Shown here: one piece after another, positions 5,427 to 40,047 of the stretch
Layout of the letters: the number at the start of each line of letters is the position of its first letter
How positions within the stretch are numbered: position 1 is the stretch's first letter
The notes under the pieces: model-generated
What the model was told of the DNA's origin: nothing
Database searches by the model: none
What the model saw: the letters and a program-made list of their open reading frames with translations, nothing else
Position numbers and translations under genes: made by a program
Source of the DNA: an uncultured Woeseia sp.
GTDB lineage: Bacteria > Pseudomonadota > Gammaproteobacteria > Steroidobacterales > UBA11654
NCBI GenBank assembly: GCA_964454905.1
Contig: CAYVTR010000002.1
Coordinates: 6,803-70,802 of the forward strand
Direction: 5' to 3'
DNA: 64,000 bases

Positions 5427-5427
5427 T

Positions 5428-6552
5428 TTAAGCTCTTTGAAACCATGGAAGATCCACTACAGTGGCTGTTAATTCTTGTTCAGGAGAAGAGATAATTATT
5501 TCACTGCCACTCCTAGCATGTGCAATATCAACAATTATGTAACATATGTTCTTATTTAGTCTTGGTGAATATACTAATGCATGCATAGAGCCAACTTTTT
5601 TATTATCAATTAAAACAGGCCAATGCTCATCGTTAAAAACTGTGATAGGTTTACCTTCTATTTCTGCCCCTATTAGTTTCTTTGCTGGTCCTCGAAGATG
5701 AATCTCCCTAAGTGCCTCTTTGCCAATAAAATCATCTCTTTGATCAAGATCAACCGTCCAGTCTAAGCCAACTTCATAGGGGTTATTTGTTCTGTCCATA
5801 TCTGCCAAATAACTGAGTATTCCGGCTTCAAGCCTGAGTATTATATTTGGTGTGCCTGCACTAATATTTAAATCTTGTCCTGCTTGCCAAAGTATTTCCC
5901 ATAATTCATCACCTTTAGAATGATCTCTAAGAAAGATTTCATAGCACCTTTCCCTACTGTAGCCCATTCTAGCAATAACCATTGGGATGCCTTCATAAGT
6001 TAGTTCCCTGAATTTATAAAAACTCAATTCGCTAACCCAATCACCAAAAACTTCAGACATTAATTTTGTCGAATTGGGTCCTTGAACTTGTAACGGTGAC
6101 ACATCAGGCTCAGTAATTTCGACGTCATAATTATATCCTGCTGCAATACCCTGGGTCCATAATAGAGAATCTCCATCAGCTAAAGAAAACCAATAATGAT
6201 CTTCATCAATTTTTAACATAACCGGGTCGTTAATAAATCCTCCCCTGAAATCTAGAAAAGGAGCATACATCGCCTGGCCTTTAGAACATTTCTTGATGTC
6301 CCTAGGTGTTAAAAATTGGGACAGCGACTCAGCATCAGGACCCTTAATTTCAACTTGACGCTCACAAGCTACATCCCAAAGCTGAACCCCATTAACTAAG
6401 TTGTTGTAATCCTCCAATGTCCCCTTAAAACTGATGGGCATATACATGTGGTTGTAAACCGAAAAAGCGTCCGCACCATATTTCATGGTTGAATCAAAAT
6501 ACGGTGATTTCCTTACTCGAGGACTAAAAACTATTTTCGATGTTTTGTACAT
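5428..6552 (-). CDS. dmdA: GcvT-family aminomethyltransferase; dimethylsulfoniopropionate (DMSP) demethylase-like
   Basis: SPRVRKSPYF...SVYNHMYMP...EDYNNLVNGVQLWDVACERQVEIKGPDA...TPRD...YAPFLDFRGGFINDPVMLK...EPDVSPLQVQGP matches the DmdA pattern as I recall it. I chose the start at Met20 of the track ORF (MYKTSK), which gives 374 aa. Confidence 0.7.
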   Translation of the reverse strand: MYKTSKIVFSPRVRKSPYFDSTMKYGADAFSVYNHMYMPISFKGTLEDYNNLVNGVQLWDVACERQVEIKGPDAESLSQFLTPRDIKKCSKGQAMYAPFLDFRGGFINDPVMLKIDEDHYWFSLADGDSLLWTQGIAAGYNYDVEITEPDVSPLQVQGPNSTKLMSEVFGDWVSELSFYKFRELTYEGIPMVIARMGYSRERCYEIFLRDHSKGDELWEILWQAGQDLNISAGTPNIILRLEAGILSYLADMDRTNNPYEVGLDWTVDLDQRDDFIGKEALREIHLRGPAKKLIGAEIEGKPITVFNDEHWPVLIDNKKVGSMHALVYSPRLNKNICYIIVDIAHARSGSEIIISSPEQELTATVVDLPWFQRA

Positions 6553-6721
6553 AATAAAGTGCAGATAATAATACTGAATAATACATAAGATTTCGAATCT
6601 GATCGGCAATAAATAGGGCTGGACTATTGATCTCCTTTTTATCTAGACTGTAGATGCTTTAAAATCATTAGGAAAAAAAGTTCTAAAAAATAAAGACAAT
6701 ATCGACTGGACAAATTTTATA

Positions 6722-8230
6722 TTGACTGTGCTGGTAACCCTTTCAATATTAATACCTATGTTTGTTGCGCCCATGGCGACGAATCAATTACTCAATCAGG
6801 CCTATGAAATTGTTGCAAGCAATTTAGGTGCGGTCTATTTAGGAATGGGACTGTTGACACTACTGTTTCTGTTAACCCTAGCAATGAGTCGTTTCGGTAA
6901 TATCAAATTGGGTAAAAAAGATGAAGCACCTGAGTACGGAATCTTTGGTTGGTCCTCGATGTTGTTTTGTTGTGGTATAGGTGCTTCTTTGGTTTTATAT
7001 GGGACCACTGAATGGGTGGACTACTATCTAAAACCTCCCTTTGGAGCTGAACCAAAATCTAGTGAAGCGATCGCTTGGGCATCAACCTATGGAATGTTTC
7101 ATTGGGGCATTATTGGTTGGTCTATATATTGTCTTCCAGCGGTAGCCATTGGCTATAGTTATCACACCAGAAACTCAGGTAGTTTAAAAACGAGCACGGG
7201 TTGTGAAGCAATCTTAGGGAATCAAGGAAGCGGCAACCTAGCTAGATTAATAGATCTCGTTTACATGGTTGCACTTGTGGGAGTCTTGGGAGCCGGACTA
7301 GGTCTTACCTCTCCAGTAGTCAGTGCGACTATAACTGAATTCTTTTCAATCGAGCAAAATCTAATCATCACTGTTTCATGCCTCTTGGTTTGTATAGTTA
7401 TCTATTCAATCAGCCTTTATTTTGGTTTGGAAGAAGGCATTCAACGGCTCAGTAAATTCTGTGCCTATATGGCCTTTTTTGTATTGATATACATCTTAAT
7501 ATTTGGACCCACTCTCTTCTTAATAAAAAACTCTTATGAGAGTTTAGTTTTTATGGCCAAAAATTTTATCAGTATGAGTCTTGGTCCGCCACCAATAGGC
7601 AAGTCTGAGTTCTCAAAAGCATGGACAATATTTATGTGGGCATGGTTCTTTGGGTTGGGGCCATTTGTTGGCATCTTTATCGCAAGAATCTCTAGAGGCA
7701 GAACCATTCGTACAATGATACTTGGAACTCTAGGGTACGGAACAATGGGATGCTCATTATTTTTTATGATCATGGGCAATAATGCTATTTATCTTGAAAC
7801 CAATGGAATCATGCCTATCGTCGAGATTTGGAGCAATGAAAGTCCAGCCGTTATGGTCTCTCAAAGTATTTCTGGAATGGTCTTGGGTAAATGGATACTT
7901 CCTTTTGTGGGTGTTTTTTGTCTTGTCTTTATGGCCACAACTTTTGACTCAGGGGCTTATACACTAGCTTCATCGATCACTAAAAAAATGAGAGCTGGAG
8001 AAAATCCAGAAATCTGGAATAGAATATTCTGGGCATTCTTCATTGCCCTACTGCCACTAGCGCTACTAATAGGAGCTGCCGACTCTCCTGAATTACAAGG
8101 AATTGATAAATTAAGACCCTTTCAAACAATTGTGCTTTTAATCTCACCACCGCTGCTGATTGTGTATATAATCATGGCGATTGGATTAATGAAAAGTATT
8201 TTTGAAGACACAAAAACAGAGGATTTATGA
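6722..8230 (+). CDS. BCCT-family (betaine/carnitine/choline) transporter; candidate DMSP/betaine importer
   Basis: It has about 12 hydrophobic segments and the BCCT signature WTIFMWAWFFGLGPFVGIFIARISRGRTIR, plus RFGNIKLG. The start is TTG as given in the track and is uncertain. Confidence 0.85.
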   Translation: MTVLVTLSILIPMFVAPMATNQLLNQAYEIVASNLGAVYLGMGLLTLLFLLTLAMSRFGNIKLGKKDEAPEYGIFGWSSMLFCCGIGASLVLYGTTEWVDYYLKPPFGAEPKSSEAIAWASTYGMFHWGIIGWSIYCLPAVAIGYSYHTRNSGSLKTSTGCEAILGNQGSGNLARLIDLVYMVALVGVLGAGLGLTSPVVSATITEFFSIEQNLIITVSCLLVCIVIYSISLYFGLEEGIQRLSKFCAYMAFFVLIYILIFGPTLFLIKNSYESLVFMAKNFISMSLGPPPIGKSEFSKAWTIFMWAWFFGLGPFVGIFIARISRGRTIRTMILGTLGYGTMGCSLFFMIMGNNAIYLETNGIMPIVEIWSNESPAVMVSQSISGMVLGKWILPFVGVFCLVFMATTFDSGAYTLASSITKKMRAGENPEIWNRIFWAFFIALLPLALLIGAADSPELQGIDKLRPFQTIVLLISPPLLIVYIIMAIGLMKSIFEDTKTEDL

Positions 8231-9135
8231 TTACTAACATAAAAACCCTAGAACAAACTTTACAAGCTAATGAGTTTGCTATTACTGCAGAAATCCCGGC
8301 ACCCATTAGTGCCTCAGCTGCAGAGATGGAAGAAAAAATTGATTTATTAGCAGGTCATGTTCATGCCATCAATGTCACTGATAACCCTGGCGCAACTGCG
8401 CATATGTCAAGCCTTGCTGGTTGCAGCATTGTACGAAATAAAGGGATTGATCCTATTTTTCAGGTGACCTGTAGAGATCGAAACAGGTTAGCTATACAAA
8501 GTGATCTCATGGGAGCATCAGCTCTTGGTGTCAACAATGTTTTAACGTTGGCAGGTGATCCAGTAAAAAATGGGGATCACCCAGATGCAAAGGCTGTTTT
8601 TGATATCAACTCTAAAAAGATTTTATCAATAATGCAGTCAATGAATGATCTTGGCGAAACCATGTCAGGACGAGAACTACAAACCAAATCAAATTTTTTT
8701 CCAGGCGGTGCAGCCATTATCCATGAACCAGAAAATAATTGGAATCCAGTAACTCTCAAAGACAAAGTCGATCATGGGGCTAAATTTATACAAACTCAGT
8801 TTTGTTATGACGTTGATTTACTCAGAGAGTATATGAAACATATTGTTGATTCAGGTTTATCAGAAAAACTTTTCTTTATTATAGGCATCGGGCCTTTGAG
8901 AAGTGATAAATCAGCAAAATGGATGAGAGATAGGCTATTTGGAACCGTCATACCAGAAAGCATTGTTCAAAGGATGGAGCAGTCAGAAAATCAAATTGAG
9001 GAAGGCGTTGCTATTTGTGCTGAACTTATTAATCAATTTGAAGAAATTGATGGAGTCCATGGTGCCCACCTCATGGCCCCTAGAAATCTTTCTGCAATTG
9101 CACCAACTGTCAAACAGGCAGGGATAAAGATATAA
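8227..9135 (+). CDS. methylenetetrahydrofolate reductase, non-canonical (acetogen/actinobacterial-like MetF, COG0685)
   Basis: NVTDNPGATAHMSSLAGCSIV...FQVTCRDRNRLAIQSDLMGASALGVNNVLTLAGDPVKNGDHPDAKAVFDI is typical of this MetF subtype. The ATG overlaps the BCCT stop (ATGA). Confidence 0.75.
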   Translation: MITNIKTLEQTLQANEFAITAEIPAPISASAAEMEEKIDLLAGHVHAINVTDNPGATAHMSSLAGCSIVRNKGIDPIFQVTCRDRNRLAIQSDLMGASALGVNNVLTLAGDPVKNGDHPDAKAVFDINSKKILSIMQSMNDLGETMSGRELQTKSNFFPGGAAIIHEPENNWNPVTLKDKVDHGAKFIQTQFCYDVDLLREYMKHIVDSGLSEKLFFIIGIGPLRSDKSAKWMRDRLFGTVIPESIVQRMEQSENQIEEGVAICAELINQFEEIDGVHGAHLMAPRNLSAIAPTVKQAGIKI

Positions 9136-9142: not shown

Positions 9143-10435
9143 TTAAGATTTACTGTCCAAGAAATCTTTTAACCTATAAAACAGCATTCCTAATGACATT
9201 GCTGGACCAGAAAACCATTTACCGCCTGGTAATTGAATATGTTTCACACGAGACAATGTATCAATCATATCCCATTCATTACTTATCGCTGAAGCAATAA
9301 TCTTGGCTGCCATATGAGTGGGCCCTACTCCATGACCAGAATAGCCTTGAGAGTAAAAAATGTTCTCGGTTAGCCGCCCTAATTGGGGAATCCGATGAAT
9401 GGTAACGGCAACATTGCCAGCCCAAGCATAATCTATCCTTACATCATTAAGATCAGGAAATACATTTAACATCCGCTTTCTCAAATTTTGATCAATATTT
9501 TTAGGCTCAGCACCAGAATAATTCCATCGTCCCCCAAAAAGAAGCCTGTGATCGGGCGAAAGCCGATAGTAGTCCAAGATAGTATTTAAATCACAAACGG
9601 CCATATCACCAGAGATAAGTTGCTTTGCCCTCTCATTGCCTAAAGGTTCTGTGGCAATAATGCAGCTGTTTGCTGGCATAATCATCCGTCTTAGTTTTGG
9701 GTTTAATGTTCCAATATAGGCATTACCAGCTAACACTAGATGCTCAGTCTTTATAGACCCGTGTTCAGTTTCTATTAAAACCTCACTCCCTGGATTAATC
9801 TTTAATGCTTTTGTTTGCTCATAAATCGATACCCCAAGATCAGCTGCTGCCTTGGCTTCGCCCAAACATAGATTTAAAGGATGGAGATGACCACTTCCTG
9901 AATCAATCATACCTCCAATATAATTTGAAGAACCAACATAATTTTTTATTTGATTCTTGTCTACAAGAGTTAAATTATGCTGATAACCTCTTCGCTCCCA
10001 CTCCTCTTTTCTTATAATTAACTCATCCATTTGGGAATTATTTAGGGCTACCTCTATGAAGCCTTCCTTCAAATCGCATTGTATTCCAAATTCTTCTATG
10101 GTCTGCCTAACCAGATCAGTGCAATCTGCCCCCAGTTTCCAAACAGATTGAGCAATGTCGTCACCCCAACTTTCAAATTTATCACTAAAAGTAAAGCCAG
10201 AAATTAATTGTCCTCCATTCCGTCCACTTGCACCCCAACCTATTCTTGCAGCATCAATCAAAACCACCTCATATCCTTTTTTTGCAAGATTTATTGCTGT
10301 ATTCACTCCTGTAAACCCACCGCCGACAATACAAACTTCAGAGGAAATATTTTCTTTTAGTTCAGGGTAATTTTTAGAGTTATTTATAGTAGCTGCATAG
10401 TAAGAAGGAACATGCTCTATTTTTATGTTTTCCAT
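9143..10435 (-). CDS. FAD-dependent oxidoreductase, gamma-glutamylputrescine oxidase (PuuB)-like
   Basis: The N-terminus SYYAATINN...VCIVGGGFTGVNTAINLAKKGYEVVLIDAARIGWGASGRNGGQL resembles E. coli PuuB and shows a DAO-family dinucleotide fold. Confidence 0.75.
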   Translation of the reverse strand: MENIKIEHVPSYYAATINNSKNYPELKENISSEVCIVGGGFTGVNTAINLAKKGYEVVLIDAARIGWGASGRNGGQLISGFTFSDKFESWGDDIAQSVWKLGADCTDLVRQTIEEFGIQCDLKEGFIEVALNNSQMDELIIRKEEWERRGYQHNLTLVDKNQIKNYVGSSNYIGGMIDSGSGHLHPLNLCLGEAKAAADLGVSIYEQTKALKINPGSEVLIETEHGSIKTEHLVLAGNAYIGTLNPKLRRMIMPANSCIIATEPLGNERAKQLISGDMAVCDLNTILDYYRLSPDHRLLFGGRWNYSGAEPKNIDQNLRKRMLNVFPDLNDVRIDYAWAGNVAVTIHRIPQLGRLTENIFYSQGYSGHGVGPTHMAAKIIASAISNEWDMIDTLSRVKHIQLPGGKWFSGPAMSLGMLFYRLKDFLDSKS

Positions 10436-10519
10436 TTGTTATATTTTTTTAAATGATAATTTTTTTGCTTTAATAAACAGTGTAATATTGATTTATTGAT
10501 CAATTAAGGATTGTACATA

Positions 10520-12064
10520 ATGGCCAGAAGAAGAACCAGAAGAAGTCAACAGACCCCTATTGACAATGAAGTCATTAAACCTGTTGTAGAAAAAGGAATG
10601 ATTGGTGGAAAGTTTAAGCCATTATCCGATCATGATATAGAACAAATTCATCAAACAACTTTGGATGTTTTAGAAAACATTGGGATGTCAAACCCCCTGC
10701 CCCAATTAAAGGAAATAGCACTTAAAAATGGGTGTACGTTTACGGACCAAGGTCGCCTTCTCTTTCCAAGATCATTGGTAGAGGACGTTATTGCTAGAGC
10801 AGGCAGAGATTTTGTTATGTATGGGAGAGACCCAAAAGATGATATAGACATGTCTGATCAAAAAGTTCATCTCTATGGTGGAGGAGAAGCGGTCACCATG
10901 CTTGACTTAGGCGCAAAAAAATACAGATCATCAACAATCAATGATGTGTACGACATTGCTAGATTGGTTGATTATCTTGAGCATGTTCATAGTTATTCCA
11001 GAGTGGTTGTGGCAACTGAGTTTAGCGACCTATTAAAAACAGATATCAACACGGCCTATGCAAGTGTTGTAGGGACAACGAAACACACTGCTTTGACTTT
11101 TGCTAGTGGGGAACACGTGAAACCAACAATTGAAATGCTGGACATGATTGCAGGTGGTGAAGGTAGGTTCTTAAAACGACCCTTCTGTCATGGCGGGGGA
11201 TGTACGGTAGTGTCCCCTCTTCGCTATGGAACAGATAATTGCGAAGTAGCTGTAGCCTCAATCGATTTCAATGCACCAATATGGGTTGTAATTGCGCCTC
11301 AATCTGGAGCAACTGCTCCGGCAGCATTAGCGGGCTCTCTAGTGCAGGTTCTAGCAGAAACATTGGCGAGCTTATTATTGATTGATCTTATAAAACCAGG
11401 TCATCCTGTAATTTTTGGTCCATGGCCTTTTGTCACAGACCTTAGAACCGGGTCCTTTTCAGGAGGCAGCGGTGAAGAAGCTTTGATGAGTGCAGCAGCT
11501 GCCCAGATTACCAATCATTATGGTCTGGCTAGCTCTGTCGGTGCTGGCATGACAGATTCAAAAAGTCCTGATGCACAAGCAGGTTATGAAAAAGGTATAA
11601 CTGTTGTAATGGCTGCGTTAGCTGGGTGTAACAATGTTTCTGAATCTTCTGGGATGATGGCAAGCCTTATGGGTTATTCATTTGAATCTCTGGTGATTGA
11701 TAATGAAATGCTCGGGATGGTTATGAGAACAGTTAGAGGTATTGAGGTCAATGAAGAAACTCTGTCCTATAGAGCAATAAAAGACACGGTAGAGGGAGAA
11801 GGTCATTTTCTAAGGGATCCTCAAACACTTTCATTAATGAAAACTGAATATCTATATCCAACTCTCGCTGACCGCAGTACCCAAGAAGAATGGGAAGCTG
11901 AAGGTTCGCCAGATATACGACAAAGAGCTGAAAAAAGAGCTAGAGAAATCTTGAATTCACACTATCCTGTCTACATTGATGATGCCACTGACAAAAAAGT
12001 AAGGGACACATTCCCTATCGAAATTTCTAGAGACGTTATTAAGCCTACCAAAGATCGATTCTAG
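10520..12064 (+). CDS. MttB-superfamily (trimethylamine methyltransferase family) methyltransferase, non-pyrrolysine, paralog 1
   Basis: The uninterrupted ORF has no in-frame TAG. Family-typical blocks are LDVLENIGM, FPRSLVED, GGC..VSPLR, APQSGATAPAALAGSLVQ, TDSK..DAQAGYEK and HFL..PQT. I moved the start to the ATG at 10520 (MARRRTRR). Confidence 0.85.
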   Translation: MARRRTRRSQQTPIDNEVIKPVVEKGMIGGKFKPLSDHDIEQIHQTTLDVLENIGMSNPLPQLKEIALKNGCTFTDQGRLLFPRSLVEDVIARAGRDFVMYGRDPKDDIDMSDQKVHLYGGGEAVTMLDLGAKKYRSSTINDVYDIARLVDYLEHVHSYSRVVVATEFSDLLKTDINTAYASVVGTTKHTALTFASGEHVKPTIEMLDMIAGGEGRFLKRPFCHGGGCTVVSPLRYGTDNCEVAVASIDFNAPIWVVIAPQSGATAPAALAGSLVQVLAETLASLLLIDLIKPGHPVIFGPWPFVTDLRTGSFSGGSGEEALMSAAAAQITNHYGLASSVGAGMTDSKSPDAQAGYEKGITVVMAALAGCNNVSESSGMMASLMGYSFESLVIDNEMLGMVMRTVRGIEVNEETLSYRAIKDTVEGEGHFLRDPQTLSLMKTEYLYPTLADRSTQEEWEAEGSPDIRQRAEKRAREILNSHYPVYIDDATDKKVRDTFPIEISRDVIKPTKDRF

Positions 12065-12069
12065 AGTTC

Positions 12070-13629
12070 ATGTCAGCTCAAAAGCGAAGAAGTGGTGGCA
12101 GCAAAGCTAGAAGGGCAATTCGCCAAGGTAAAGCAAAGAAAGCGGTTGTTCACCCTGGGCTTGAAACCGGTAACTACAAACCATTGAGTGAGCATGATAT
12201 TAAAAAAATACATGCTACGGCACTAGACGTTCTAGAAAATATTGGCATTAGTGATCCTATACCAGGAATTCTTAATCACACACTTGATAAAGGATGCATC
12301 CTAGGTGATGACAACCGACTAAAATTTCCTAGATCTTTAGTTGAAGATCTTTTAGATATTGCTCCTAAAGACCATCTTATGTATGCCATAAACCCCAAAT
12401 ATGATTATATGGTGTCTGGAAACAAAACTTACTTATCCACATCCGGTGAGCCAATTTCCATATTTGAATATGAATCTCAATCATTTCGTCCTACAACATT
12501 GGTGGATATTTATGATGCTGCAAGGCTTTGCGATCAATTAGAACATATTCATCAGTATGGACAACCCTTTGCAATAACAGAATATAGCCAAGACAAATTT
12601 ACTCATGATATTAATGCTGCTTATGCTGCTTTAGCTGGAACACAGAAAGGGATAGGGCTTGCTGTGGATAATGTTGAACATATTGATCCTCTAATTAATC
12701 TCTTCGACACTTTTCTTGGAGGAGAAGGAGAATATATAAAACGACCTTTCGCTGAAATTGGGGGATGCCCAATAGTTTCTCCTCTAAGGTTTGGAAAAGA
12801 TAATGCTGAAGTCATGGTTAAGTTGGCTGAGATGGGCCTTTACATTGGTGTCTGTACAGCTCCTCAGACCGGTACTACAGCGCCTGCTTCTTTGGCAGGG
12901 AGTCTCGTTCAATCATTTGCCGAAACCCTTGCCTGTCTTTGTGTGGTCAACCTCATTAAACCAGGGTCATATTGTGATTTTGAAATGTGGCCATTTATAT
13001 CTGATCTTAGAACAGGCGCGTTCACCGGTGGTAGTGGTGAGCAAGCCTTAATCATGGCAGCAACAGCTCAAATGTGTAATTTTTATGGGCTAGTTTCTAG
13101 CGTTGCATGCGGGATGACGGACTCAAAAACAATGGATGCACAAGCCGGCTACGAAAAAGCAATAACAACCACAGCCGCAATGCTTGCTGGAGGAAACATT
13201 GTTTCATCATATGCTGGAGCAGTTGGAAGCATAATGGGATGGTCATTTGAGGGAGCGATTATTGACAATGATATGTCTGGAAATATACAAAGGTTAGTGA
13301 AAGGCATTGAGGTTAATGATGAAACATTATCCTATGATGTTATCAATGACGTTGTCTATGGAGATGGACACTATCTCAAACATCCTCAAACAATTAACCT
13401 AATGGAGTCTGAATTTTTATACCCTAATTTAGCAAATAGACAAACCACACAAGAATGGGAAGAATCTGGAAAGCAAACCATTTATGACGCTGCACATCTA
13501 AGGTTAAAACAAATGATGAAGAATTATTATCCAGAATATATAAATAAAAAAATTGATGACAAAATAAGATCTGAATTTCCAATTCGACTAGAAAAAGAAA
13601 GGATGAAACCAAATCTTGACTGGAAATAG
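12070..13629 (+). CDS. MttB-superfamily methyltransferase, non-pyrrolysine, paralog 2
   Basis: It shares the same conserved blocks as paralog 1 and is about half identical to it by eye. It starts 5 nt after paralog 1 ends. Confidence 0.85.
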   Translation: MSAQKRRSGGSKARRAIRQGKAKKAVVHPGLETGNYKPLSEHDIKKIHATALDVLENIGISDPIPGILNHTLDKGCILGDDNRLKFPRSLVEDLLDIAPKDHLMYAINPKYDYMVSGNKTYLSTSGEPISIFEYESQSFRPTTLVDIYDAARLCDQLEHIHQYGQPFAITEYSQDKFTHDINAAYAALAGTQKGIGLAVDNVEHIDPLINLFDTFLGGEGEYIKRPFAEIGGCPIVSPLRFGKDNAEVMVKLAEMGLYIGVCTAPQTGTTAPASLAGSLVQSFAETLACLCVVNLIKPGSYCDFEMWPFISDLRTGAFTGGSGEQALIMAATAQMCNFYGLVSSVACGMTDSKTMDAQAGYEKAITTTAAMLAGGNIVSSYAGAVGSIMGWSFEGAIIDNDMSGNIQRLVKGIEVNDETLSYDVINDVVYGDGHYLKHPQTINLMESEFLYPNLANRQTTQEWEESGKQTIYDAAHLRLKQMMKNYYPEYINKKIDDKIRSEFPIRLEKERMKPNLDWK

Positions 13630-13724: not shown

Positions 13725-13760
13725 AAAACCTGTTTAGCAAAAGCTATCAGGTTTTTTTTT
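13725..13760 (+). terminator. intrinsic terminator or attenuator hairpin between mttB paralog 2 and metF
   Basis: AAAACCTG-TT-TAGC-AAAA-GCTA-T-CAGGTTTT forms an extended hairpin that runs into a T9 tract. The hairpin ends 14 nt before the metF ATG. Confidence 0.55.
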
Positions 13761-13773
13761 GGAAAAAGATTTT

Positions 13774-14619
13774 ATGATTAAGGACATTTCATTTGAGTTC
13801 TTTCCTCCAAGAACAGAGAAAATGGAGCAGAACCTAAAGCAAAACATAGGAAAGTTAATGGAACTATCTCCTAAATTTGTATCTATTACCTATGGTGCAG
13901 GAGGGACCACTCGAGATAAAACTCATAAAATCATCTCTAAGTTAATAAGTGAAACCGATCTCAATGTTGCTGCCCATTTAACCTGTGTCAATTCAAGTAT
14001 AAATGAAATTGATGAGGTTATAGAAAGCTACACCTCCATAGGGGTTAAACACATTGTTGCTCTTAGAGGTGATATGAAAGATTTAGGTCCATTTACCCCT
14101 CATCCTAAAGGTTTAAATAGTTCAATTGAGCTAGTCAGACATATTAAAGGCAAAAGCAACATAAAAGTTTCTATTAGCGGTTATCCTGAGCCACATCCAG
14201 AATCCCAAGGAATTTCGACAGATATTAACTTTATTAAATCTAAAATTGATGCTGGGGCTGATCAAATAATTACTCAATTTTCCTTTCAAGCTGAAAATTA
14301 TATTAAATATAGAGATACATTAGTTAACCAAGGCATTAATATACCGATTATTCCTGGGATTATGCTTATTAAGAGCTTTAAAGGAATAAAGAATATGAGT
14401 AATAAAGTTGGCATAAATGTACCAAATTGGGTTGATAAAACCATTGAAAGAGAAACAGAAGAAACTCAAAAAGTAATAGCTGAGGATTTTGCTAGAACCC
14501 AATCATCTGTATTAGAAAGCAATGGATTTGAGCAACTTCACTTTTATACCTTAAATGAATCTAAGATTATGAAAAACATTGCTAAACACCTAGGCTTTTA
14601 TAAAAAAAGTACTATATAA
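13774..14619 (+). CDS. metF: 5,10-methylenetetrahydrofolate reductase, canonical E. coli-type
   Basis: SFEFFPPRTEKMEQNL, SITYGAGGTTRDKTH, AAHLTCV, ALRGD and ITQF are classic MetF blocks. I chose the ATG at 13774 rather than the TTG at 13759. Confidence 0.85.
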   Translation: MIKDISFEFFPPRTEKMEQNLKQNIGKLMELSPKFVSITYGAGGTTRDKTHKIISKLISETDLNVAAHLTCVNSSINEIDEVIESYTSIGVKHIVALRGDMKDLGPFTPHPKGLNSSIELVRHIKGKSNIKVSISGYPEPHPESQGISTDINFIKSKIDAGADQIITQFSFQAENYIKYRDTLVNQGINIPIIPGIMLIKSFKGIKNMSNKVGINVPNWVDKTIERETEETQKVIAEDFARTQSSVLESNGFEQLHFYTLNESKIMKNIAKHLGFYKKSTI

Positions 14620-14635: not shown

Positions 14636-15679
14636 ATGATAACAATCGAATCTCAGATAAAAGAAAAAGGTTATCTACTAGCAGATGGTGCTACTGGAAC
14701 AAACTTATTTGACATGGGATTAGAGTCAGGTTATTCCCCGGAATTTTGGAATCTAGAATTCCCTGAGCGTGTAAAAGCTAACCATGAAAATTTTATACGT
14801 GCTGGATCAGACATTATCTTAACCAACTCGTTTGGAGCAAATAAATATAGACTGGCCCTTCATGATGCTGAAAACAAAGTAGAAGATTTAAATTTTGAGG
14901 CAGCGAGACTTGCAAAAGAATCAACTGATACATTTGAAAAACCTGTTTTTATCGCAGGCTCAATAGGCCCAACTGGTGAAATATTAGAACCATTAGGCAC
15001 ATTAACTAAAAAAGATGCTCAAGCAGCTTTTAAAAAACAGGCGTCAGCATTGAAAGACGGTGGTGCTGACCTACTATGGATTGAAACCATGTCCTCAGAA
15101 GAAGAAATGGAAGCCGCTTTATTAGGAGCCAAAGAGTCGTCATTACCCATCATTTGTTCTTATAGTTTTGATACTCATGGTAAATCCATGATGGGTCTAG
15201 AACCCTCACAGCTTGCAGAGCTTGCCAGAAAGTACTGTCCAGATGTTATTGGTTATGGAGCAAACTGTGGTATAGGGGCTTCTGAGTTAATTGGTTCTTT
15301 AATTTGCTTTAAAACCTCTAACAAGAATGAAGATCTGTTGCTTGTGGCTAAGGGTAATTGTGGTGTTCCTGAATTTAAGGGAGATGCCATAGTCTATAAT
15401 GGAACCCCGGAAATGATGGCAAAGTATGCTCGACACGCTAGAGATATGGGTGCATCTATTATAGGCGGATGCTGTGGCACCACCCATGTTCACATAAAGG
15501 AAATGTCAGAGGCATTACAATCGTATAAACCCTTAATAGAAAAAATAGATCTAGATTCTATTATTGAAGATTTGGGACCCATGACCGTTGGAAATAAGGA
15601 AATGATAAATAATTATCTCAACCCAGGCTCAACACAAACAAAAGCAACAAGAGAAAGAAAAAGAAAAAGAAGAAGATGA
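14636..15679 (+). CDS. homocysteine S-methyltransferase domain protein (stand-alone MetH Hcy-binding module; BHMT-like alternative)
   Basis: Supporting motifs are LLADGATGTNLF, ILTNSFGAN, GANCG and the GGCCGTTHVH zinc-ligand cysteines. The C-terminus is polybasic: TRERKRKRRR. Confidence 0.8.
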   Translation: MITIESQIKEKGYLLADGATGTNLFDMGLESGYSPEFWNLEFPERVKANHENFIRAGSDIILTNSFGANKYRLALHDAENKVEDLNFEAARLAKESTDTFEKPVFIAGSIGPTGEILEPLGTLTKKDAQAAFKKQASALKDGGADLLWIETMSSEEEMEAALLGAKESSLPIICSYSFDTHGKSMMGLEPSQLAELARKYCPDVIGYGANCGIGASELIGSLICFKTSNKNEDLLLVAKGNCGVPEFKGDAIVYNGTPEMMAKYARHARDMGASIIGGCCGTTHVHIKEMSEALQSYKPLIEKIDLDSIIEDLGPMTVGNKEMINNYLNPGSTQTKATRERKRKRRR

Positions 15680-15743: not shown

Positions 15744-16430
15744 ATGCCAGAAGAATTTGATGATATTATACTTTCAGAACTCGATGATCAAGAACTCACA
15801 GAGCAGATGCATGAAGACCTCTATGATGGTTTAGCTGAAGAAATTGCTGAAGGAACGCAAATCTTATTAGATAGAGGATGGGAAGCAACTGAAGTATTAG
15901 ATAAAGCTCTAGTTGAGGGTATGGTCGTTGTGGGTGATGATTTCCGTGATGGAATTTTATTTGTCCCAGAGGTTTTATTGGCAGCCAATGCAATGAAAGC
16001 AGGCATGGCTTTATTGGAACCGATTCTGTCAGAATCTGGAGTAGAACCAATTGCCACAATGGTGATCGGAACTGTCAAGGGTGATATCCATGACATTGGC
16101 CAAAAACTGGTAGGAATGATGATGGAAGGCGCTGGCGTTGAAGTCTTCAATCTTGGCGTTAACACCGACGTCGATGAATACATTAATGCTCTTGAAGAAC
16201 ATAATGCAACAATTCTTGGAATGTCAGCATTGCTCACCACAACCATGCCCTATATGAAAGTAGTGGTTGATGAATTAAAAGCAAGAGGAATCAGAGACAA
16301 ATACATCATTATGGTTGGTGGCGCACCTTTGAACGATGAATTTGCTGAACACGTTGGAGCAGATGCTTATTGCATGGATGCTGGTAGCGCTGTAGAGACT
16401 ATGAAAAAGTTAGTTGCTGCTAACAATTAA
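15744..16430 (+). CDS. corrinoid (cobalamin-binding) protein with B12-binding cap and Rossmann domains
   Basis: Supporting motifs are DxHxxG (GDIHDIGQKLV), SALLTTTM and MVGGAPL. The N-terminal 37 aa are strongly acidic (15 D/E, no K/R). Confidence 0.85.
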   Translation: MPEEFDDIILSELDDQELTEQMHEDLYDGLAEEIAEGTQILLDRGWEATEVLDKALVEGMVVVGDDFRDGILFVPEVLLAANAMKAGMALLEPILSESGVEPIATMVIGTVKGDIHDIGQKLVGMMMEGAGVEVFNLGVNTDVDEYINALEEHNATILGMSALLTTTMPYMKVVVDELKARGIRDKYIIMVGGAPLNDEFAEHVGADAYCMDAGSAVETMKKLVAANN

Positions 16431-16432: not shown

Positions 16433-17023
16433 ATGACCGAAAAATTACTTATTATTGCTTGTGGGGCACTGGCATTCGAACTAAATCAACTAAAAAAACT
16501 CAACTCTTGGAATCATGTGAGTATCAAGTGTCTTGATGCAGAACTTCATAATACTCCTAAATTAATACCCGAGAAAGTCAGAGAAAAATATCTGACTTTG
16601 AAAGATGATTTCTCAAAGGTTTTTATCGCCTATGCTGATTGTGGTACAGGCGGATTACTAGATAATGTTCTAAAAGAATATGGTCTTGAAAGACTAGAGG
16701 GTGCCCATTGTTATGAGTTTTATTCAGGGCAAAGAAATTTTACTCATTTTACTGAACAAGAACTTGGCACATTTTACTTAACCGATTTTCTGGTCAAACA
16801 TTTCGAAAGATTGGTAATAGAAGGATTGGGTATGGATCAACATCCAGAATTAAAAAATGATTATTTCAAACATTATAAGAAAGTTATCTATTTAGCTCAG
16901 TCTAGATCAAAATCATTACAGCAAGATGCTAAAAAATATGCAGATTTTCTAGACTTAGATTACTCTTTTTATTACACAGGTTTAGATAATCTAGAATCGC
17001 AATTAAATCAGTCGGTTAACTAA
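16433..17023 (+). CDS. DUF1638-like protein (accessory protein of split corrinoid methyltransferase systems)
   Basis: LLIIACGALAFEL...AYADCGTGG fits DUF1638 as I recall it. The gene sits between the corrinoid protein and the pterin-binding gene. Confidence 0.6.
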   Translation: MTEKLLIIACGALAFELNQLKKLNSWNHVSIKCLDAELHNTPKLIPEKVREKYLTLKDDFSKVFIAYADCGTGGLLDNVLKEYGLERLEGAHCYEFYSGQRNFTHFTEQELGTFYLTDFLVKHFERLVIEGLGMDQHPELKNDYFKHYKKVIYLAQSRSKSLQQDAKKYADFLDLDYSFYYTGLDNLESQLNQSVN

Positions 17024-17322
17024 TGGGTAAAATGATTACAATTTATTGGAGAGATATTCCTTCACACGTGATCTATAAGCTCGGCAGAGAAAAATATAAA
17101 AAACAGCTTAACCCTAAATTCGAGACCGCTATTGATAGAGCCGCAATGAGAGCGGGTAAAGGCTCGAGTGATGCCTATATGTCAGAATGGCGGAGAGAAA
17201 CAGTTGCCATGCAAGGAAACCCTCAAGAGTTGGTAGATAACCTAGTGAATGAATTAGAAAATCAATTTACTGATGAGGTTCTTGAAAAAACGATTAAGGC
17301 CAAAGGAATAAAACCAAAATAG
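17023..17322 (+). CDS. small conserved protein (99 aa), possibly of the 'virulence factor' domain family seen beside split-MetH genes
   Basis: It is coupled to DUF1638 through a TAATG overlap. The family assignment is from memory only. Confidence 0.4.
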   Translation: MGKMITIYWRDIPSHVIYKLGREKYKKQLNPKFETAIDRAAMRAGKGSSDAYMSEWRRETVAMQGNPQELVDNLVNELENQFTDEVLEKTIKAKGIKPK

Positions 17323-17331: not shown

Positions 17332-18210
17332 ATGCCGCGAACAATTATAAGCTCCAATACAAAAGAAATCATTATTGATCCAGATCAACCATTCGTGATC
17401 ATTGGCGAGAGAATCAATCCAACAAATAGAAAATTGCTCGCAGCAGAAATGAAAGTAGGCAATCTTGAAAGAGTTGAACAAGATGCTATGAGCCAAATCA
17501 ATGCAGGCGCACAAATATTGGATGTTAATGCGGGAGTTCCATTAGCTGATGAACCAAAAATTTTGGCAGACTCAATTAAATTAATTCAGAGTATATCTGA
17601 TGTCCCACTGTGCATCGATTCTTCAATAGTCGAGGCCTTGAAGTGTGGTCTTGAAGCTTATCAAGGTAAAGCACTGTTGAACTCAGTAACTGGTGAAGAG
17701 GAACGATTAGAAACTGTTCTACCTTTAGTGAAACAATTTGGATGTGCTGTTATTGGAATATCTAACGATGATTCAGGTATATCTGAGGATATCAACGTTC
17801 GTTTTGAAGTTGCAAAAAAGATAGTTGAACGAGCCATGGATCATGGGATCCCCAAAGAAGATGTCATAATTGATCCTTTGGTTATGCCGATAGGTGCTAT
17901 CAATGATGCCGGAAAACAGGTTCTAGAGTTGATAAAGAAATTACAGAATGAATTACAAGTCAATACCACCTGTGGTGCTTCTAATTTAAGCTTTGGTCTC
18001 CCAAATCGACATGGATTAAACACAGCTTTTATTGCCATGGCAATAGCCAATGGTATGCCCTGTGCAATCACCAATCCATTAGAAAAAGAGATAATGCAAT
18101 CCATTAGAGGGGCAAATGTCGTTATGGGGCATGATCCTGAATGTTCTGATTGGATTATGCATTACCGAGAACCCAGAGAGAAAAGAAGCAGAAGAAAAAG
18201 AAGATCTTAG
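17332..18210 (+). CDS. pterin-binding domain protein; methyltetrahydrofolate:corrinoid methyltransferase (MetH pterin module / AcsE-MtrH-like)
   Basis: Supporting motifs are IIGERINPTNRK, LDVNAG, CIDSS, NSV and a DHPS-like TIM barrel pattern. The C-terminus is polybasic: REPREKRSRRKRRS. Confidence 0.8.
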   Translation: MPRTIISSNTKEIIIDPDQPFVIIGERINPTNRKLLAAEMKVGNLERVEQDAMSQINAGAQILDVNAGVPLADEPKILADSIKLIQSISDVPLCIDSSIVEALKCGLEAYQGKALLNSVTGEEERLETVLPLVKQFGCAVIGISNDDSGISEDINVRFEVAKKIVERAMDHGIPKEDVIIDPLVMPIGAINDAGKQVLELIKKLQNELQVNTTCGASNLSFGLPNRHGLNTAFIAMAIANGMPCAITNPLEKEIMQSIRGANVVMGHDPECSDWIMHYREPREKRSRRKRRS

Positions 18211-18221
18211 CTTCATATCCT

Positions 18222-20225
18222 ATGGCTCAGATGAATAAAAAAGAGTACAAAATTGCATTCATGCCATCAGGAAAGAGAGGCTCCTTTCCAGAGGGAACAA
18301 CTATTCTAGATGCCTCTAGAGCACTTGGTGTTGATTTAGATTCTGTTTGTGGGGGCAGAGCAATTTGTGGGCGTTGCCAGATAGAATTAACCGAAGGTAA
18401 ATTTGCAAAACATGGTATTGAATCCAAAGCAGATCATTTATCTGGGGTAACAAAGGCAGAAAAAAAATACGAAAAAAGAAAATCATTGGATAAAAAGCGA
18501 AGATTAGGCTGTCAATCAAAACTTCTTGGAAACGTGGTCATTGATATTCCTCCGGAAAGTCAGCTGCATCAACAAATAGTTCGTAAAGATTTTGAAGCCA
18601 CTGATATTTTCATCAATCCAATAACAAGACTCTACTATATTGACTCCAAAATCAATGCAGCCACAAATCTTGAAGAAGCAGTAAAAGAAAGACTGAGAAA
18701 TGACTGGTCTTTGAACATAGAGTCTATAAATTGTGCCTCAAAAACTCTTAGTGATGCCATCAAAGATTCTTCCCAGGGGTTTACGGTTGCGGTTAGAGAT
18801 CAGAAAAATTTGGTAGGGGTTTGGCCAGGGTTAATTGAAACCATTTACGGTACTGCAATTGACATTGGATCAACCACAATAGCAGTGAATTTATGTGACT
18901 TAAAAAATGGAAAAGTGCTCTCCAGTCAAGGATCGATGAATCCTCAGATAAGGTTCGGGGAAGATCTCATGAGCAGAGTTTCTTATTGCATGCAGAATCC
19001 TGGGTCTCAAACTGAACTGACAAAGGTGGTGCGTGAAGCGGTTAATGACCTTATAGCAAAAGCTTGTTCTGAGGCAAATATTGAAACTAGTTTGGTGATG
19101 GAGACTACAGTTGTTGGCAATCCAGTAATGCATCATCTGTTTCTTGGGTTTGATCCGGTCCCACTAGGTGTCGCACCTTTTAAGCTTGAAACTAGTGACG
19201 CGCTGACTCTTAAGGCTTCTGATTATGGGATGGATATTCATCCCCAAGCTGAAATTTATGTTCTGCCATGCCTAGCAGGGCATGTTGGAGCAGATGCTGC
19301 TGCTGTGATTCTCACCGAAAAACCCTATGATCAAAAGACAATGAATCTCATTGTGGATGTGGGAACCAATGCAGAAATAATTGTTGGCAATCAGGATCAA
19401 ATTTTAGCTGCCTCAAGTCCGACTGGCCCAGCTTTTGAGGGAGCTCAAATTAATTCGGGACAACGAGCCGCTCCGGGTGCAATAGAGAGAGTTAGAATTG
19501 ATCCATTAACCCTAGAAGCCCGTTTCAAAGTGATAGGTTCAGATTTATGGTCTGATGATCCTGATTTTAGTGAAAACATTGAATCAATTGGTATAACAGG
19601 GATCTGTGGATCTGGGATTATTGAAGCTGTGGCCGAAATGTACTTGTCCGGAATTATTTCTTCAGATGGATTAATGAATGAAGAAATGGCCAAAGAGAAT
19701 CAATATCTTTTTAAAAATGGCAGAACTTATTCCTACGTGCTCTATGAGGGTGAGCAGAAAATAATCGTTACACAAAATGATATCCGAGCAATACAACTAG
19801 CTAAAGCAGCATTGTATGCTGGTGCAAAATTGTTAATGGATAAATTAGCAATCAAGAAAATAGACAAAATCAGATTTGCTGGTGCTTTTGGAAGCCATAT
19901 TGATGTGAAATATGCGATGGTTTTAGGTCTTATACCTGATTGTGACCTAGATGAAGTAAGTTCAGCAGGGAATGCAGCGAGCACAGGTGCAAGAATGGCA
20001 CTTCTGGATACAAAAAGTAGAAATGAAATAGAAAAACAGGTGAAAAAGATAGAAAAAATAGAAACTGCCATAGAACCTCTATTTCAAGAATATTTTGTTG
20101 GCGCTATGTCGGTACCTCATAACACTGATCCTTTTAATGAGTTGAGTAAAATCATAAAATTGCCTGAAAAGAAAAAAGCAAAGACCAATAGAAAGAGAAG
20201 AAAAAAAAGAACATCTGATCTATAA
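18222..20225 (+). CDS. RACo-type reductive activator of corrinoid proteins (2Fe-2S ferredoxin domain + ASKHA ATPase, DUF4445/COG3894)
   Basis: The N-terminus has plant-type ferredoxin cysteines (CGGRAICGRCQIEL). ASKHA motifs are IDIGSTTIAV, VDVGTNAEI and GICGSGIIEA. I chose the ATG at 18222 to avoid overlapping the upstream gene. The C-terminus is polybasic: KKKAKTNRKRRKKRTSDL. Confidence 0.8.
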   Translation: MAQMNKKEYKIAFMPSGKRGSFPEGTTILDASRALGVDLDSVCGGRAICGRCQIELTEGKFAKHGIESKADHLSGVTKAEKKYEKRKSLDKKRRLGCQSKLLGNVVIDIPPESQLHQQIVRKDFEATDIFINPITRLYYIDSKINAATNLEEAVKERLRNDWSLNIESINCASKTLSDAIKDSSQGFTVAVRDQKNLVGVWPGLIETIYGTAIDIGSTTIAVNLCDLKNGKVLSSQGSMNPQIRFGEDLMSRVSYCMQNPGSQTELTKVVREAVNDLIAKACSEANIETSLVMETTVVGNPVMHHLFLGFDPVPLGVAPFKLETSDALTLKASDYGMDIHPQAEIYVLPCLAGHVGADAAAVILTEKPYDQKTMNLIVDVGTNAEIIVGNQDQILAASSPTGPAFEGAQINSGQRAAPGAIERVRIDPLTLEARFKVIGSDLWSDDPDFSENIESIGITGICGSGIIEAVAEMYLSGIISSDGLMNEEMAKENQYLFKNGRTYSYVLYEGEQKIIVTQNDIRAIQLAKAALYAGAKLLMDKLAIKKIDKIRFAGAFGSHIDVKYAMVLGLIPDCDLDEVSSAGNAASTGARMALLDTKSRNEIEKQVKKIEKIETAIEPLFQEYFVGAMSVPHNTDPFNELSKIIKLPEKKKAKTNRKRRKKRTSDL

Positions 20226-20305
20226 ATTACCTTGAATAAAATCTCTGCAGAATAAATAATTTTGTGATAAATTTCTGCCATCACTACCCTAAACTTTCTT
20301 CTATT

Positions 20306-21511
20306 ATGGAAAAACTAGAACAACTAATTAATAACCAGGTCAAAGACTGGTCTCTAGATCAAGAATTTTATAAAGACAAAGAAATTTATGATCTAGAGAT
20401 TGAGAAAATCTACATGAATTCTTGGCTATTGGCTGGACATGAATCTCAAATTCCAAACACAGGTGATTATTTTCTTTTCAATCTGTTATCAGAATCAGTA
20501 ATTATCATCAGAGGTAAAGATGGTGTGATCAGGGCCTTTATGAATGTTTGCAGGCACCGTGGCTCTCACATTTGCTTAGAAAGTCAAGGCAATGTGAAAC
20601 GATTGACATGCCCCTATCATGCATGGACTTATAACTTGGAAGGCGCTCTAGTGGCTGCTCAGAATTTGAGCAATAAAATAGATAAAGAAAATCTTAGTCT
20701 GCATAACTGCTCAATAGATGTTATTGAAGGGCTGATACTGATTAATTTTGCAGATAATCCTTCATCACTTGCGATGATGAAACAAGAATTATCAGAACCA
20801 ATGCAAATGTTCGGAATGAAAGATCTGAAAATAGCTGCGCATAGAAATTATTCTATTGAAGCCAACTGGAAACTCACAGTCGAAAATTACAATGAATGCT
20901 ATCATTGTGCTCCAGCTCATCCAGAATATGCAAAATCGCACAGCCTAAAATATGATGAATCGAGTAACGAATATCAATCAGCTCAAAAAGCAATGATGGA
21001 AACACTTGCTGCATGTGGTATGAAAGATTACGAGATTAACGCAGATTATGTCGATCGAATTGCATCACAAGAGCAATATGCCTATGGCCGCTATGCATTG
21101 TATGGTGGATACATTACTGGCAGTGAAGATGGCAAAGCCCTCGCTCCTCTGATAGGTGAAATCACTGAATATAATCCGGGTGCTTCTGACTTCTGTCTTG
21201 GTCCTGTTAGTTTCTTACTGGCCTACAGCGATCACGTGGTTGCCTATGTCTTTACTCCAGTTACTCATCAAACTAGTCAGTGTGACGTTTATTGGATGGT
21301 TGATAAAGACGCCAAAAAAGACAAAGACTATGATCTTGAACGTCTAATCTGGTTATGGGATGTCACCACTAAAGCAGATGAGAGAATCATTGAGAATAAT
21401 CAAAAGGGCGTTAACTCTAGAAAATATACTTCAGGGCCTTTTTCTGAGAAGGAATCAACAGAAAAACGATTTATCAGCTGGTATCTTGATCAGCTAAGAG
21501 AAACTTTATAG
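20306..21511 (+). CDS. Rieske [2Fe-2S] non-heme-iron oxygenase alpha subunit (GbcA/CntA/Stc2-like N-demethylase candidate)
   Basis: The Rieske motif is CRHRGSHIC...CPYHAWTY and the mononuclear iron motif is ENYNECYHCAPAHPEY. I chose the start at MEKLEQL. Confidence 0.8.
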   Translation: MEKLEQLINNQVKDWSLDQEFYKDKEIYDLEIEKIYMNSWLLAGHESQIPNTGDYFLFNLLSESVIIIRGKDGVIRAFMNVCRHRGSHICLESQGNVKRLTCPYHAWTYNLEGALVAAQNLSNKIDKENLSLHNCSIDVIEGLILINFADNPSSLAMMKQELSEPMQMFGMKDLKIAAHRNYSIEANWKLTVENYNECYHCAPAHPEYAKSHSLKYDESSNEYQSAQKAMMETLAACGMKDYEINADYVDRIASQEQYAYGRYALYGGYITGSEDGKALAPLIGEITEYNPGASDFCLGPVSFLLAYSDHVVAYVFTPVTHQTSQCDVYWMVDKDAKKDKDYDLERLIWLWDVTTKADERIIENNQKGVNSRKYTSGPFSEKESTEKRFISWYLDQLRETL

Positions 21512-35588: not shown

Positions 35589-35589
35589 A

Positions 35590-36405: not shown

Positions 36406-36411
36406 TAGCGC

Positions 36412-37932: not shown

Positions 37933-37951
37933 TTTTAGTTCTCCTTCAATT

Positions 37952-40039: not shown

Positions 40040-40047
40040 AAATTAGT

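Follow-up and report, generated by a model that had tools for sequence, protein, structure and literature searches.

Two adjacent pyrrolysine-free MttB-superfamily proteins with different predicted pockets head a corrinoid methyl-transfer cluster in an uncultured marine Woeseia sp.

We analyzed a stretch of 64,000 nucleotides (the window) from an uncultured Woeseia sp. of the Gammaproteobacteria (contig CAYVTR010000002.1, positions 6,803–70,802, of assembly GCA_964454905.1), in which two neighboring open reading frames (ORFs), A and B, encode members of the MttB superfamily. ORF A (positions 10520–12064, plus strand, 514 residues, TAG stop) is an A-type and ORF B (12070–13629, plus strand, 519 residues, TAG stop) a B-type MttB-superfamily methyltransferase without pyrrolysine; ORF A is predicted to be a methyl-donor:corrinoid methyltransferase (MT1), and ORF B a second MT1 with a different pocket. 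That both are MT1 enzymes is very probable. With less assurance, we favor a reading in which they act on different substrates and feed one shared corrinoid core encoded downstream. A sequence-only reading of this DNA had already proposed two different substrates, and we infer the same: it is the best-supported explanation, given the residues on the catalytic face that are specific to each clade, the independent occurrence of each type elsewhere and the purifying selection on both genes.

Sequence and coding state of the two ORFs

A mechanical list of ORFs starts ORF A at an in-frame TTG (10511). In an alignment of seven related loci from metagenome-assembled genomes (MAGs), however, both ATG 10520 and a Shine-Dalgarno sequence, AAGGA (10506–10510, 10 nt upstream), are kept, and ATG 10520 is therefore taken as the right start. 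Both proteins are end-to-end members of the MttB superfamily. The PF06253 (MTTB) profile, with a cut-off of 25 bits, matches ORF A with 347.4 bits (E = 1e-103, profile positions 5–490 of 500) and ORF B with 306.4 bits (E = 3e-91, positions 1–491 of 500). Over 512 aligned residues, the two show 50% identity and 66% similarity, and they share the blocks LDVLENIG, FPRSLVED, APQ(S/T)G(A/T)TAPA and TDSK..DAQAGYEK. The sequence-only reading had described two full-length family members 5 nt apart, with these blocks and about half of their residues in common, and this description holds in each respect. A read-through fusion of A and B across the TAG stop of ORF A is ruled out because ORF B lies in another frame. 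A tblastn search found no third MttB-family gene in the window, the GC content of which is 34–44%.

Neither ORF contains an internal stop and, thus, neither contains an in-frame TAG. The position of pyrrolysine 334 (Pyl334) of M. barkeri MttB aligns to an ATG codon in both genes (Met344 in A and Met349 in B). This methionine is invariant among 160 A-clade and 131 B-clade homologs (see below), while MtgB and 4YYC carry leucine at the same position. The position of Tyr364 of MttB, a residue that assists pyrrolysine, is serine in both proteins. Against TIGR02369, the model for pyrrolysine-containing MttB, ORF A scores 395.6 and ORF B 344.8 bits, and the curated equivalog cut-off of 525 is not reached. 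The two proteins thus resemble M. barkeri MttB (7XCL) in fold, family, sequence (30–33% identity) and the block around the Pyl position, but differ from it in the missing UAG, in the residues that replace Pyl334 and Tyr364, and in their scores below the model cut-off. The earlier view that they are not pyrrolysine enzymes is borne out by the ATG at the Pyl position and by these scores.

The Rfam model PYLIS_3 (gathering score 38) matches positions 11549–11648 in ORF A with 55.5 bits and 13114–13222 in ORF B with 35.5 bits. We rejected the match as evidence of pyrrolysine. The UAG of the model aligns to AUG (Met), the match in the window has few base pairs, several of which are non-canonical, and its score derives from the conserved coding sequence for GMTDSK..DAQAGYEK. 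Such a false positive, produced by coding homology, is a caution for automated annotation of pyrrolysine.

Overall fold and the putative substrate pocket

The sequence-only reading had suggested modeling of the active-site residues. The AlphaFold2 (AF2) models made here place both proteins in the TIM-barrel fold, and the substrate-binding positions are compared below by sequence alignment. The ORF A model (predicted local distance difference test score, pLDDT, 84; predicted template-modeling score, pTM, 0.85) aligns with 7XCL (M. barkeri MttB), 2QNE and 9YCE (D. hafniense MtgB), and 4YYC (S. meliloti) with TM scores of 0.82–0.89 over ∼475–490 columns. The fold search was run with this model only; the ORF B model (pLDDT 82, pTM 0.84) has its secondary-structure elements in the same order as A. 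Sequence identity of A and B to these four structures is ∼28–33%.

In MtgB, glycine betaine is bound by four residues, as established by mutagenesis and a ligand-bound crystal structure: Y97 and F356 make cation-π contacts, while R312 and H348 clamp the carboxylate (PMC13080624). R312 is conserved in MtcB, MtpB, MthB and MtyB, and the substitution H348E abolishes MtgB activity (PMC13080624). In an alignment of 300 sequences, R312 corresponds to S339 in A and S344 in B, H348 to E375 and S380, and F356 to L383 and I388, respectively. The position of Y97 is taken by G122 in A and G126 in B, in a part of the alignment that is uncertain by about one residue; B has no aromatic residue at or next to this position, and the nearest one in A is Y119, three residues upstream. 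All A-clade sequences have the serine at the R312 position, as do 126 of the 131 B-clade sequences. Compared with MtgB and 4YYC, A and B therefore share the fold, the superfamily and the lack of pyrrolysine and, with MtgB, the partnership with a corrinoid protein, a methyl-corrinoid:tetrahydrofolate methyltransferase (MT2) and an activase. They differ in being only 28–30% identical, in belonging to another clade and in having the tetrad replaced by G/S/E/L (A) or G/S/S/I (B). The A-type enzymes even carry an invariant glutamate at the position where the H348E change inactivates MtgB. Judged from these sequences, the two enzymes in the window are not of the canonical MtgB clade and do not keep its tetrad, and their mode of binding appears to differ from that of the characterized glycine betaine MtgB.

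4YYC provides a useful contrast, as it keeps the Y, R and H, three of the four tetrad residues. It is identical to the product of an S. meliloti MttB-family gene that neighbors mtgC in divergent orientation (CP090106.1; locus L036, 9894–11468), which makes this structure a strong candidate for a rhizobial glycine betaine methyltransferase on sequence grounds. Since the gene for 4YYC adjoins mtgC and 4YYC groups with MtgB, a canonical MtgB-clade enzyme does partner this kind of corrinoid core in Proteobacteria. The PDB entry, a structural genomics deposition, is titled 'trimethylamine methyltransferase ... unknown ligand'.

Positions that discriminate between A and B were defined as those at least 90% conserved within each clade and different between the clades; there are 16. 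Residues confined to the A clade include R161 (160/160), H224 (157/160), W255 (159/160), P301 (160/160), P350 (160/160) and E375 (160/160), and those confined to the B clade Q165 (131/131), T229 (114/131), D260 (115/131), M306 (130/131), M355 (127/131) and Y381 (131/131). Other residues are common to both clades: E123, Q261 and W302 are invariant, and F304 is phenylalanine in all but one sequence. MtgB, MttB and 4YYC lack these four residues, except that 4YYC has a phenylalanine at the W302 position.

Active sites of TIM barrels lie on the face formed by the C-terminal ends of the strands. Seven of the 16 discriminating positions fall at such ends, taken as −2 to +4 residues around the C-terminal ends of the eight strands in the AF2 model of ORF A, compared with 56 of the 514 residues overall (odds ratio 7.1, p = 7e-4). 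The models thus suggest that the differences between A and B concentrate on the catalytic face of the barrel, and to this extent agree with the earlier proposal that the two proteins diverge around the substrate pocket. It is plausible that W302 and F304 supply aromatic contacts to a cationic head group in both enzymes. On this reading, the A type would have a relocated Arg/His(/Glu) polar site and the B type a Tyr/Asp site.

Clades, distribution and selection

A profile search of 1.84 billion proteins returned 9,711 family matches (E≤1e-3). Each of A and B has many homologs at 60–98% identity in other lineages and in marine metagenomes; of the sequences in the 300-sequence alignment, 160 fall with A, at 59% identity or more, and 131 with B, at 60% or more. 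A comparison with characterized enzymes, also proposed in the sequence-only reading, was made with a neighbor-joining tree of 137 sequences, which included representatives of 50%-identity clusters from the profile search and, as the only characterized references, the PDB-derived MtgB and MttB together with 4YYC. Bootstrap support is 92% for the A clade, 100% for the B clade and 80% for their sister grouping. Both belong to a 39-member clade (82%), while MtgB groups with 4YYC (100%), which places A and B outside the MtgB clade.

The same locus is present in MAGs labeled 'uncultured Woeseia sp.' or Gammaproteobacteria, as found by a scan of a genome collection, with 85–97% identity for the ORF A protein and with synteny kept from the acyl-CoA dehydrogenase gene to the RACo gene. 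The A+B pair occurs in seven of these loci (L001–L005, L014 and L015). In another (L006), an A gene at 86% identity is directly followed by metF, and B is absent. The genes that follow B also vary: metF-mtgE-mtgC in the window, mtgE-mtgC in L004 and L015, and mtgC directly in L005. The contigs of L001–L004 and L014 stop ∼0.3–1 kb past ORF B. Strain-level variation seems to be concentrated at the junction after ORF B and to break assemblies there.

These data bear on the origin of the pair. The sequence-only reading had termed A and B tandem, diverged paralogs, and they are indeed adjacent paralogs. A recent local duplication followed by divergence would account for their position as same-strand neighbors and for the sister relationship of their clades within the superfamily. 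However, the two are only 50% identical, yet each has homologs at 60–98% identity in other lineages; moreover, the clades are separately supported, L006 has A without B, and gene content after B is variable. We consider a local duplication highly improbable. By these sequence comparisons, A and B are two old, separate clades and not a recent tandem duplicate, and the pair would fit the juxtaposition, or the gain and loss, of an old paralog.

Either type can also be found alone. SAR116, Rhodobacterales and other contigs, including P0044 and P0079, carry A-type genes at 76–81% identity with no B-type gene nearby, and a B-type gene stands alone, directly upstream of mtgC, in one Woeseiaceae contig. 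This distribution bears on the idea that A and B are subunits of a single methyltransferase, an obligate hetero-oligomer. The 5-nt spacing suggests similar levels of production for the two proteins, and the family is known to dimerize through a C-terminal loop, MtgB being a dimer and MttB a trimer of dimers (PMC9842639, PMC13080624). An obligate complex is nevertheless very hard to reconcile with A-type genes that lack a B-type gene nearby (L006, SAR116, Rhodobacterales, P0044 and P0079) and with the solitary B-type gene beside mtgC, and we give it very little credence.

Both genes are under strong purifying selection. Relative to the closest relatives, dN/dS is 0.027–0.041 for A and 0.051–0.058 for B, and ORF B evolves about twice as fast as ORF A at the protein level.

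A corrinoid methyl-transfer cluster downstream of ORF B

ORFs A and B head a complete corrinoid methyl-transfer cluster, with metF, mtgE, mtgC, genes for DUF1638 and PF13769 proteins, mtgD and a RACo/RamA gene on the same strand. This cluster was missed in the sequence-only reading. The first gene (13759–14619) encodes a MetF2-like methylenetetrahydrofolate reductase (MTHFR; PF02219, 277 bits; TIGR00676, 290 bits against a cut-off of 294); its start is probably ATG 13774, not TTG 13759. It is followed by an mtgE-like gene for a homocysteine S-methyltransferase module of the 'bmt' type (14636–15679; PF02574, 220 bits; NF005718, 423 bits, cut-off 338) and by an mtgC-like gene (15744–16430; PF02310 and PF02607), the product of which is a corrinoid (B12-binding) protein and the predicted methyl carrier. 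The mtgC product shows 67.6% identity to the cobalamin-binding protein encoded in the S. meliloti mtg cluster, and 62–69% to corrinoid proteins from the mtg clusters of Sinorhizobium, Aminobacter and Paracoccus. Its scores do not reach the cut-offs of the MtgC models from anaerobes, in agreement with the report that MtgC of the aerobic system forms a distinct lineage (PMC12478193).

Next are two accessory genes that recur in mtg clusters, assigned by Pfam: a DUF1638 gene (16433–17023) and a gene for a PF13769 'virulence factor' protein (17023–17322). The pair also adjoins mtgC in the Woeseiaceae and S. meliloti loci. The mtgD-like gene (17332–18210) encodes a pterin-binding MT2 (PF00809; NF005719, 354 bits, cut-off 259). 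The last gene of the methyl-transfer set (18150–20225) encodes a reductive activase of the RACo/RamA type with Fer2, RACo middle and ASKHA regions (PF14574, PF17651 and PF00111); its top NCBIfam match, AcsV, is below cut-off (352 bits), and its true start is probably downstream of TTG 18150. All of these genes are on the plus strand. A Rieske oxygenase gene with a distant resemblance to GbcA (320 bits, cut-off 670) lies at the end of the cluster (20264–21511). In S. meliloti (CP090106.1) and in one Woeseiaceae contig, mtgC is found amid the same methyl-transfer genes.

The closest described counterpart is MtgBCDE of Ruegeria pomeroyi DSS-3 (Mausz et al., PNAS 2025, PMC12478193), a cobalamin-dependent system of aerobic marine bacteria that serves as glycine betaine demethylase and as split methionine synthase. 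There, the MttB-family protein MtgB methylates MtgC, MtgD moves the methyl group to tetrahydrofolate (THF) and also acts in reverse, and MtgE makes methionine, while MetF2 oxidizes methyl-THF and RamA and DUF1638 reactivate cobalamin; of these components, only the MtgC and MtgD core has been validated genetically (PMC12478193). The window has the same parts, namely pfam06253 methyltransferases, an MtgC-type corrinoid protein, MtgD, MtgE, MetF2, a RamA-type activase and DUF1638, likewise in a marine aerobe of the Pseudomonadota with several MttB paralogs and with the genes clustered as in pelagic Alpha-, Gamma- and Deltaproteobacteria. It differs in that the cluster opens with two neighboring MT1 genes and in that mtgE is part of it, whereas mtgE is usually located away from mtgBCD in pelagic taxa (PMC12478193). 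'Woeseia'-labeled pelagic MAGs do not appear in the portions of the supplementary files of that study available to us.

A system in which several MT1 enzymes share one core has been described in E. limosum, where MtpB, MtcB, MtyB and MthB use one MtqC/MtqA/RamQ core (PMC8604678). The window would follow the same logic by analogy, in that MttB-family MT1 enzymes, each with its own substrate, would share a single corrinoid protein, a single MT2 and a single activase. The host in that case, however, is an anaerobic acetogen, and its characterized enzymes reportedly retain R312 and act on acidic quaternary amines, whereas A and B lack the arginine.

Proposed pathway and substrates

In the pathway that we propose, a methylated substrate would be imported from seawater, with a BCCT transporter encoded upstream as the candidate importer, and would bind in the TIM-barrel pocket of either A or B. 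Cob(I)alamin on MtgC would then attack the N- (or S-) methyl group of the substrate to give methyl-MtgC, from which MtgD would transfer the methyl group to THF; MetF would oxidize the methyl-THF to methylene-THF for energy or one-carbon (C1) supply. Alternatively, MtgE could discharge the carrier by passing the methyl group to homocysteine, yielding methionine. Cobalamin that has lapsed into the inactive cob(II) state would be re-reduced by RACo/RamA with DUF1638. We infer the methyl transfer to MtgC, the sharing of the core and every substrate identity considered below.

Several points weigh against different substrates for A and B. R. pomeroyi makes two pfam06253 proteins, MtgB1 (SPO2108) and MtgB2 (SPO2134), and both are induced by glycine betaine, by choline and by carnitine (PMC12478193), so paralogy need not mean different substrates. 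As regards functional data, all A-type and B-type homologs with a labeled source come from MAGs or metagenomes. The strand-end definition behind the enrichment on the catalytic face was chosen after the model had been viewed, and enrichment was not significant when only the pocket positions named in the literature were counted (3 of 16, p = 0.11). The placement of R161, H224, E375 and Y381 in the pocket would follow from their secondary-structure position alone.

The co-induction in R. pomeroyi is also an argument that A and B are isozymes, which would act on one osmolyte, glycine betaine or another, and differ in affinity, regulation or stability. The single BCCT transporter and single corrinoid core of the window would suit such an arrangement, as would the fact that the A and B clades are each other's closest. 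It is at odds, on the other hand, with the chemistry of the clade-specific residues on the catalytic face (Arg/His/Glu in A against Gln/Thr/Tyr in B) and with the occurrence of A and B independently of each other in unrelated neighborhoods; for glycine betaine in particular, neither protein keeps the MtgB tetrad. We regard isozymes as unlikely.

Another arrangement would be sequential: one enzyme would demethylate a quaternary amine, such as glycine betaine, which gives dimethylglycine, and the other would demethylate the tertiary or secondary product. The genes are adjacent, with a 5-nt gap, and are probably co-transcribed and possibly translationally coupled; the invariant Glu375 of the A type could, speculatively, help to protonate an amine. 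The known corrinoid-dependent demethylation of tertiary and secondary methylamines, however, needs pyrrolysine (PMC9842639), where A and B have methionine. Oxidative enzymes suited to such products are encoded nearby (a DAO-family oxidoreductase, two GcvT-family proteins and a Rieske oxygenase), and A is found without B and B without A. Sequential demethylation is thus quite unlikely, and we retain the reading of two MT1 enzymes with different substrates.

The candidate substrates cannot be ranked by homology, since both proteins are outside the MtgB clade and lack its binding residues, and none reaches an even chance in our estimation. Glycine betaine is a candidate for one of the two enzymes, given the BCCT transporter and the 2025 model, and would need a binding mode other than that of MtgB. 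A single genome can hold as many as seven pfam06253 ORFs, with other methylated compounds as possible substrates (PMC12478193). Choline is used by MthB only once phosphorylated (PMC12155760).

Gene neighborhoods of the homologs are heterogeneous and gave no consistent clue to the substrate. One A-type gene stands alone among housekeeping genes and another beside an MR_MLE gene; those of SAR116 and Rhodobacterales lie beside a split thiamine pyrophosphate-dependent enzyme, with succinate dehydrogenase or hydantoinase genes downstream. One B-type gene is next to a hydantoinase subunit gene, with a creatinase-like gene ∼5 kb away. Proteins of the R. pomeroyi chromosome were absent from the homolog matches and from the tblastn matches to plasmids, all of which were either more distant paralogs or proteins from MAGs or metagenomes.

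A plasmid of Leisingera caerulea (NZ_CP081067.1; L037, 5628–11769) carries an MttB-family gene 46–47% identical to A and B, flanked by genes for a Rieske oxygenase with an NAD(P)-binding partner, an MR_MLE (HpbD-like) protein, a GMC oxidoreductase and an ABC transporter. The layout recalls catabolic clusters for hydroxyproline betaine and proline betaine. Together with the MR_MLE-adjacent A-type gene, it gives a weak hint that the wider clade acts on compounds of the proline- or hydroxyproline-betaine type; no MR_MLE gene is present in the window.

It is possible, if doubtful, that the A type, the B type or both are functionally new branches that demethylate compounds of a class that has yet to be connected with corrinoid methyltransferases in oxic seawater. 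Both types were seen here only in uncultured marine bacteria and are without the Arg312/His348 carboxylate clamp, a feature reportedly common to the characterized enzymes for acidic quaternary amines. Such a branch would use a binding architecture of Trp302, Phe304, Glu123 and Gln261 combined with Arg161/His224/Glu375 in A or Tyr381/Asp260 in B, and its substrate could be a methylated osmolyte that is non-acidic or atypical as a zwitterion, for example choline, trimethylamine N-oxide, compounds of the hydroxyproline- or proline-betaine type, sulfonium compounds, or creatine-like N-methyl compounds. CdmB (chloromethane) was considered as a possible new substrate class for MttB proteins and set aside.

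Upstream genes and the borders of the pair

Upstream of ORF A, the BCCT-family transporter gene (6722–8230, plus strand; PF02028, 411 bits) overlaps an MTHFR-like gene (8227–9135, plus strand; PF02219, 120 bits), and the synteny of the two is kept in seven related loci. The transporter, already pointed out in the sequence-only reading, fits an osmolyte-type methyl donor and may serve for uptake of a quaternary amine or sulfonium osmolyte. Divergent from ORF A is a gene for an FAD-dependent amine oxidoreductase of the DAO family (9143–10435, minus strand; PF01266, 229 bits; top NCBIfam matches below cut-off), which adjoins ORF A in L001–L006 and L015. Its product possibly oxidizes a demethylated amine.

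The intergenic region between the DAO-family gene and ORF A contains a stretch (10481–10510, plus strand) that is kept in the alignment of the seven related MAG loci. In the window, it comprises an extended −10-like element, TGTAATAT (10481–10488), which the promoter scanner did not list, and a perfect 10-bp palindrome, ATTGATCAAT (10495–10504), located between this element and the ribosome-binding site. The palindrome is a possible operator. At the other border, a hairpin, AAAACCTG-N15-CAGGTTTT, followed by a T-run (13725–13760, plus strand), was read from the sequence in the gap that separates ORF B from metF, and is absent from the output of the terminator scanner. It may act as a weak terminator or attenuator, in which case A and B could form a partly separate transcription unit.

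Genes for C1 and amine metabolism are abundant across the whole window. Further upstream (3669–6609), a DmdA-like GcvT-family gene (404.5 bits against a DmdA cut-off of 410) lies beside the gene for the acyl-CoA dehydrogenase, a protein of 585 residues that is DmdC-like in size and domain make-up. A module for demethylation of dimethylsulfoniopropionate appears, therefore, to adjoin the corrinoid cluster. The presence of two MTHFR-family genes (8227–9135 and 13759–14619) may be explained by the fact that both demethylation routes yield methyl-THF. A second Rieske-type oxygenase, of the VanA_C type, is encoded at 61662–62774, and both Rieske oxygenases could be oxidative N- or O-demethylases that operate alongside the corrinoid route. 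A block on the minus strand (34218–45786) encodes a Gln-synt_C-only protein, an enoyl-CoA hydratase, an aldehyde dehydrogenase, an ADP-forming acyl-CoA synthetase-like protein, a second GcvT-family protein, two flavin amine oxidases and a class-III aminotransferase, and has the appearance of a catabolic island for amines or polyamines (or methylamines). Unrelated to A and B is an ORF of 752 residues (831–3089) that fuses HMG-CoA reductase and GHMP-kinase domains of the mevalonate pathway, an unusual arrangement in a gammaproteobacterium, and that is followed by a NUDIX gene.

Implications

The MtgBCDE system and the presence of multiple MttB paralogs per genome were already known (PMC12478193). 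What is added here are two distinct clades, seen only in uncultured bacteria, that lie outside the canonical MtgB clade, lack the glycine betaine tetrad and differ from each other at the predicted catalytic face. Calling every mtgC-adjacent pfam06253 gene a glycine betaine methyltransferase is unsafe, since A and B lack the motif, of which the S. meliloti enzyme keeps three of four residues. That cobalamin-dependent demethylation of osmolytes is a major route in oxic seawater, and a highly expressed one, has been recognized only recently. The locus described here, from an abundant uncultured pelagic lineage, is a compact and complete test system for this route, with two MT1 genes, a corrinoid protein, two acceptor modules and an activase. 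If A and B prove to be glycine betaine enzymes, they would represent a second, convergent mode of binding glycine betaine. More broadly, vitamin B12 may be drawn upon in the ocean by a wider range of methylated compounds than has been assumed.

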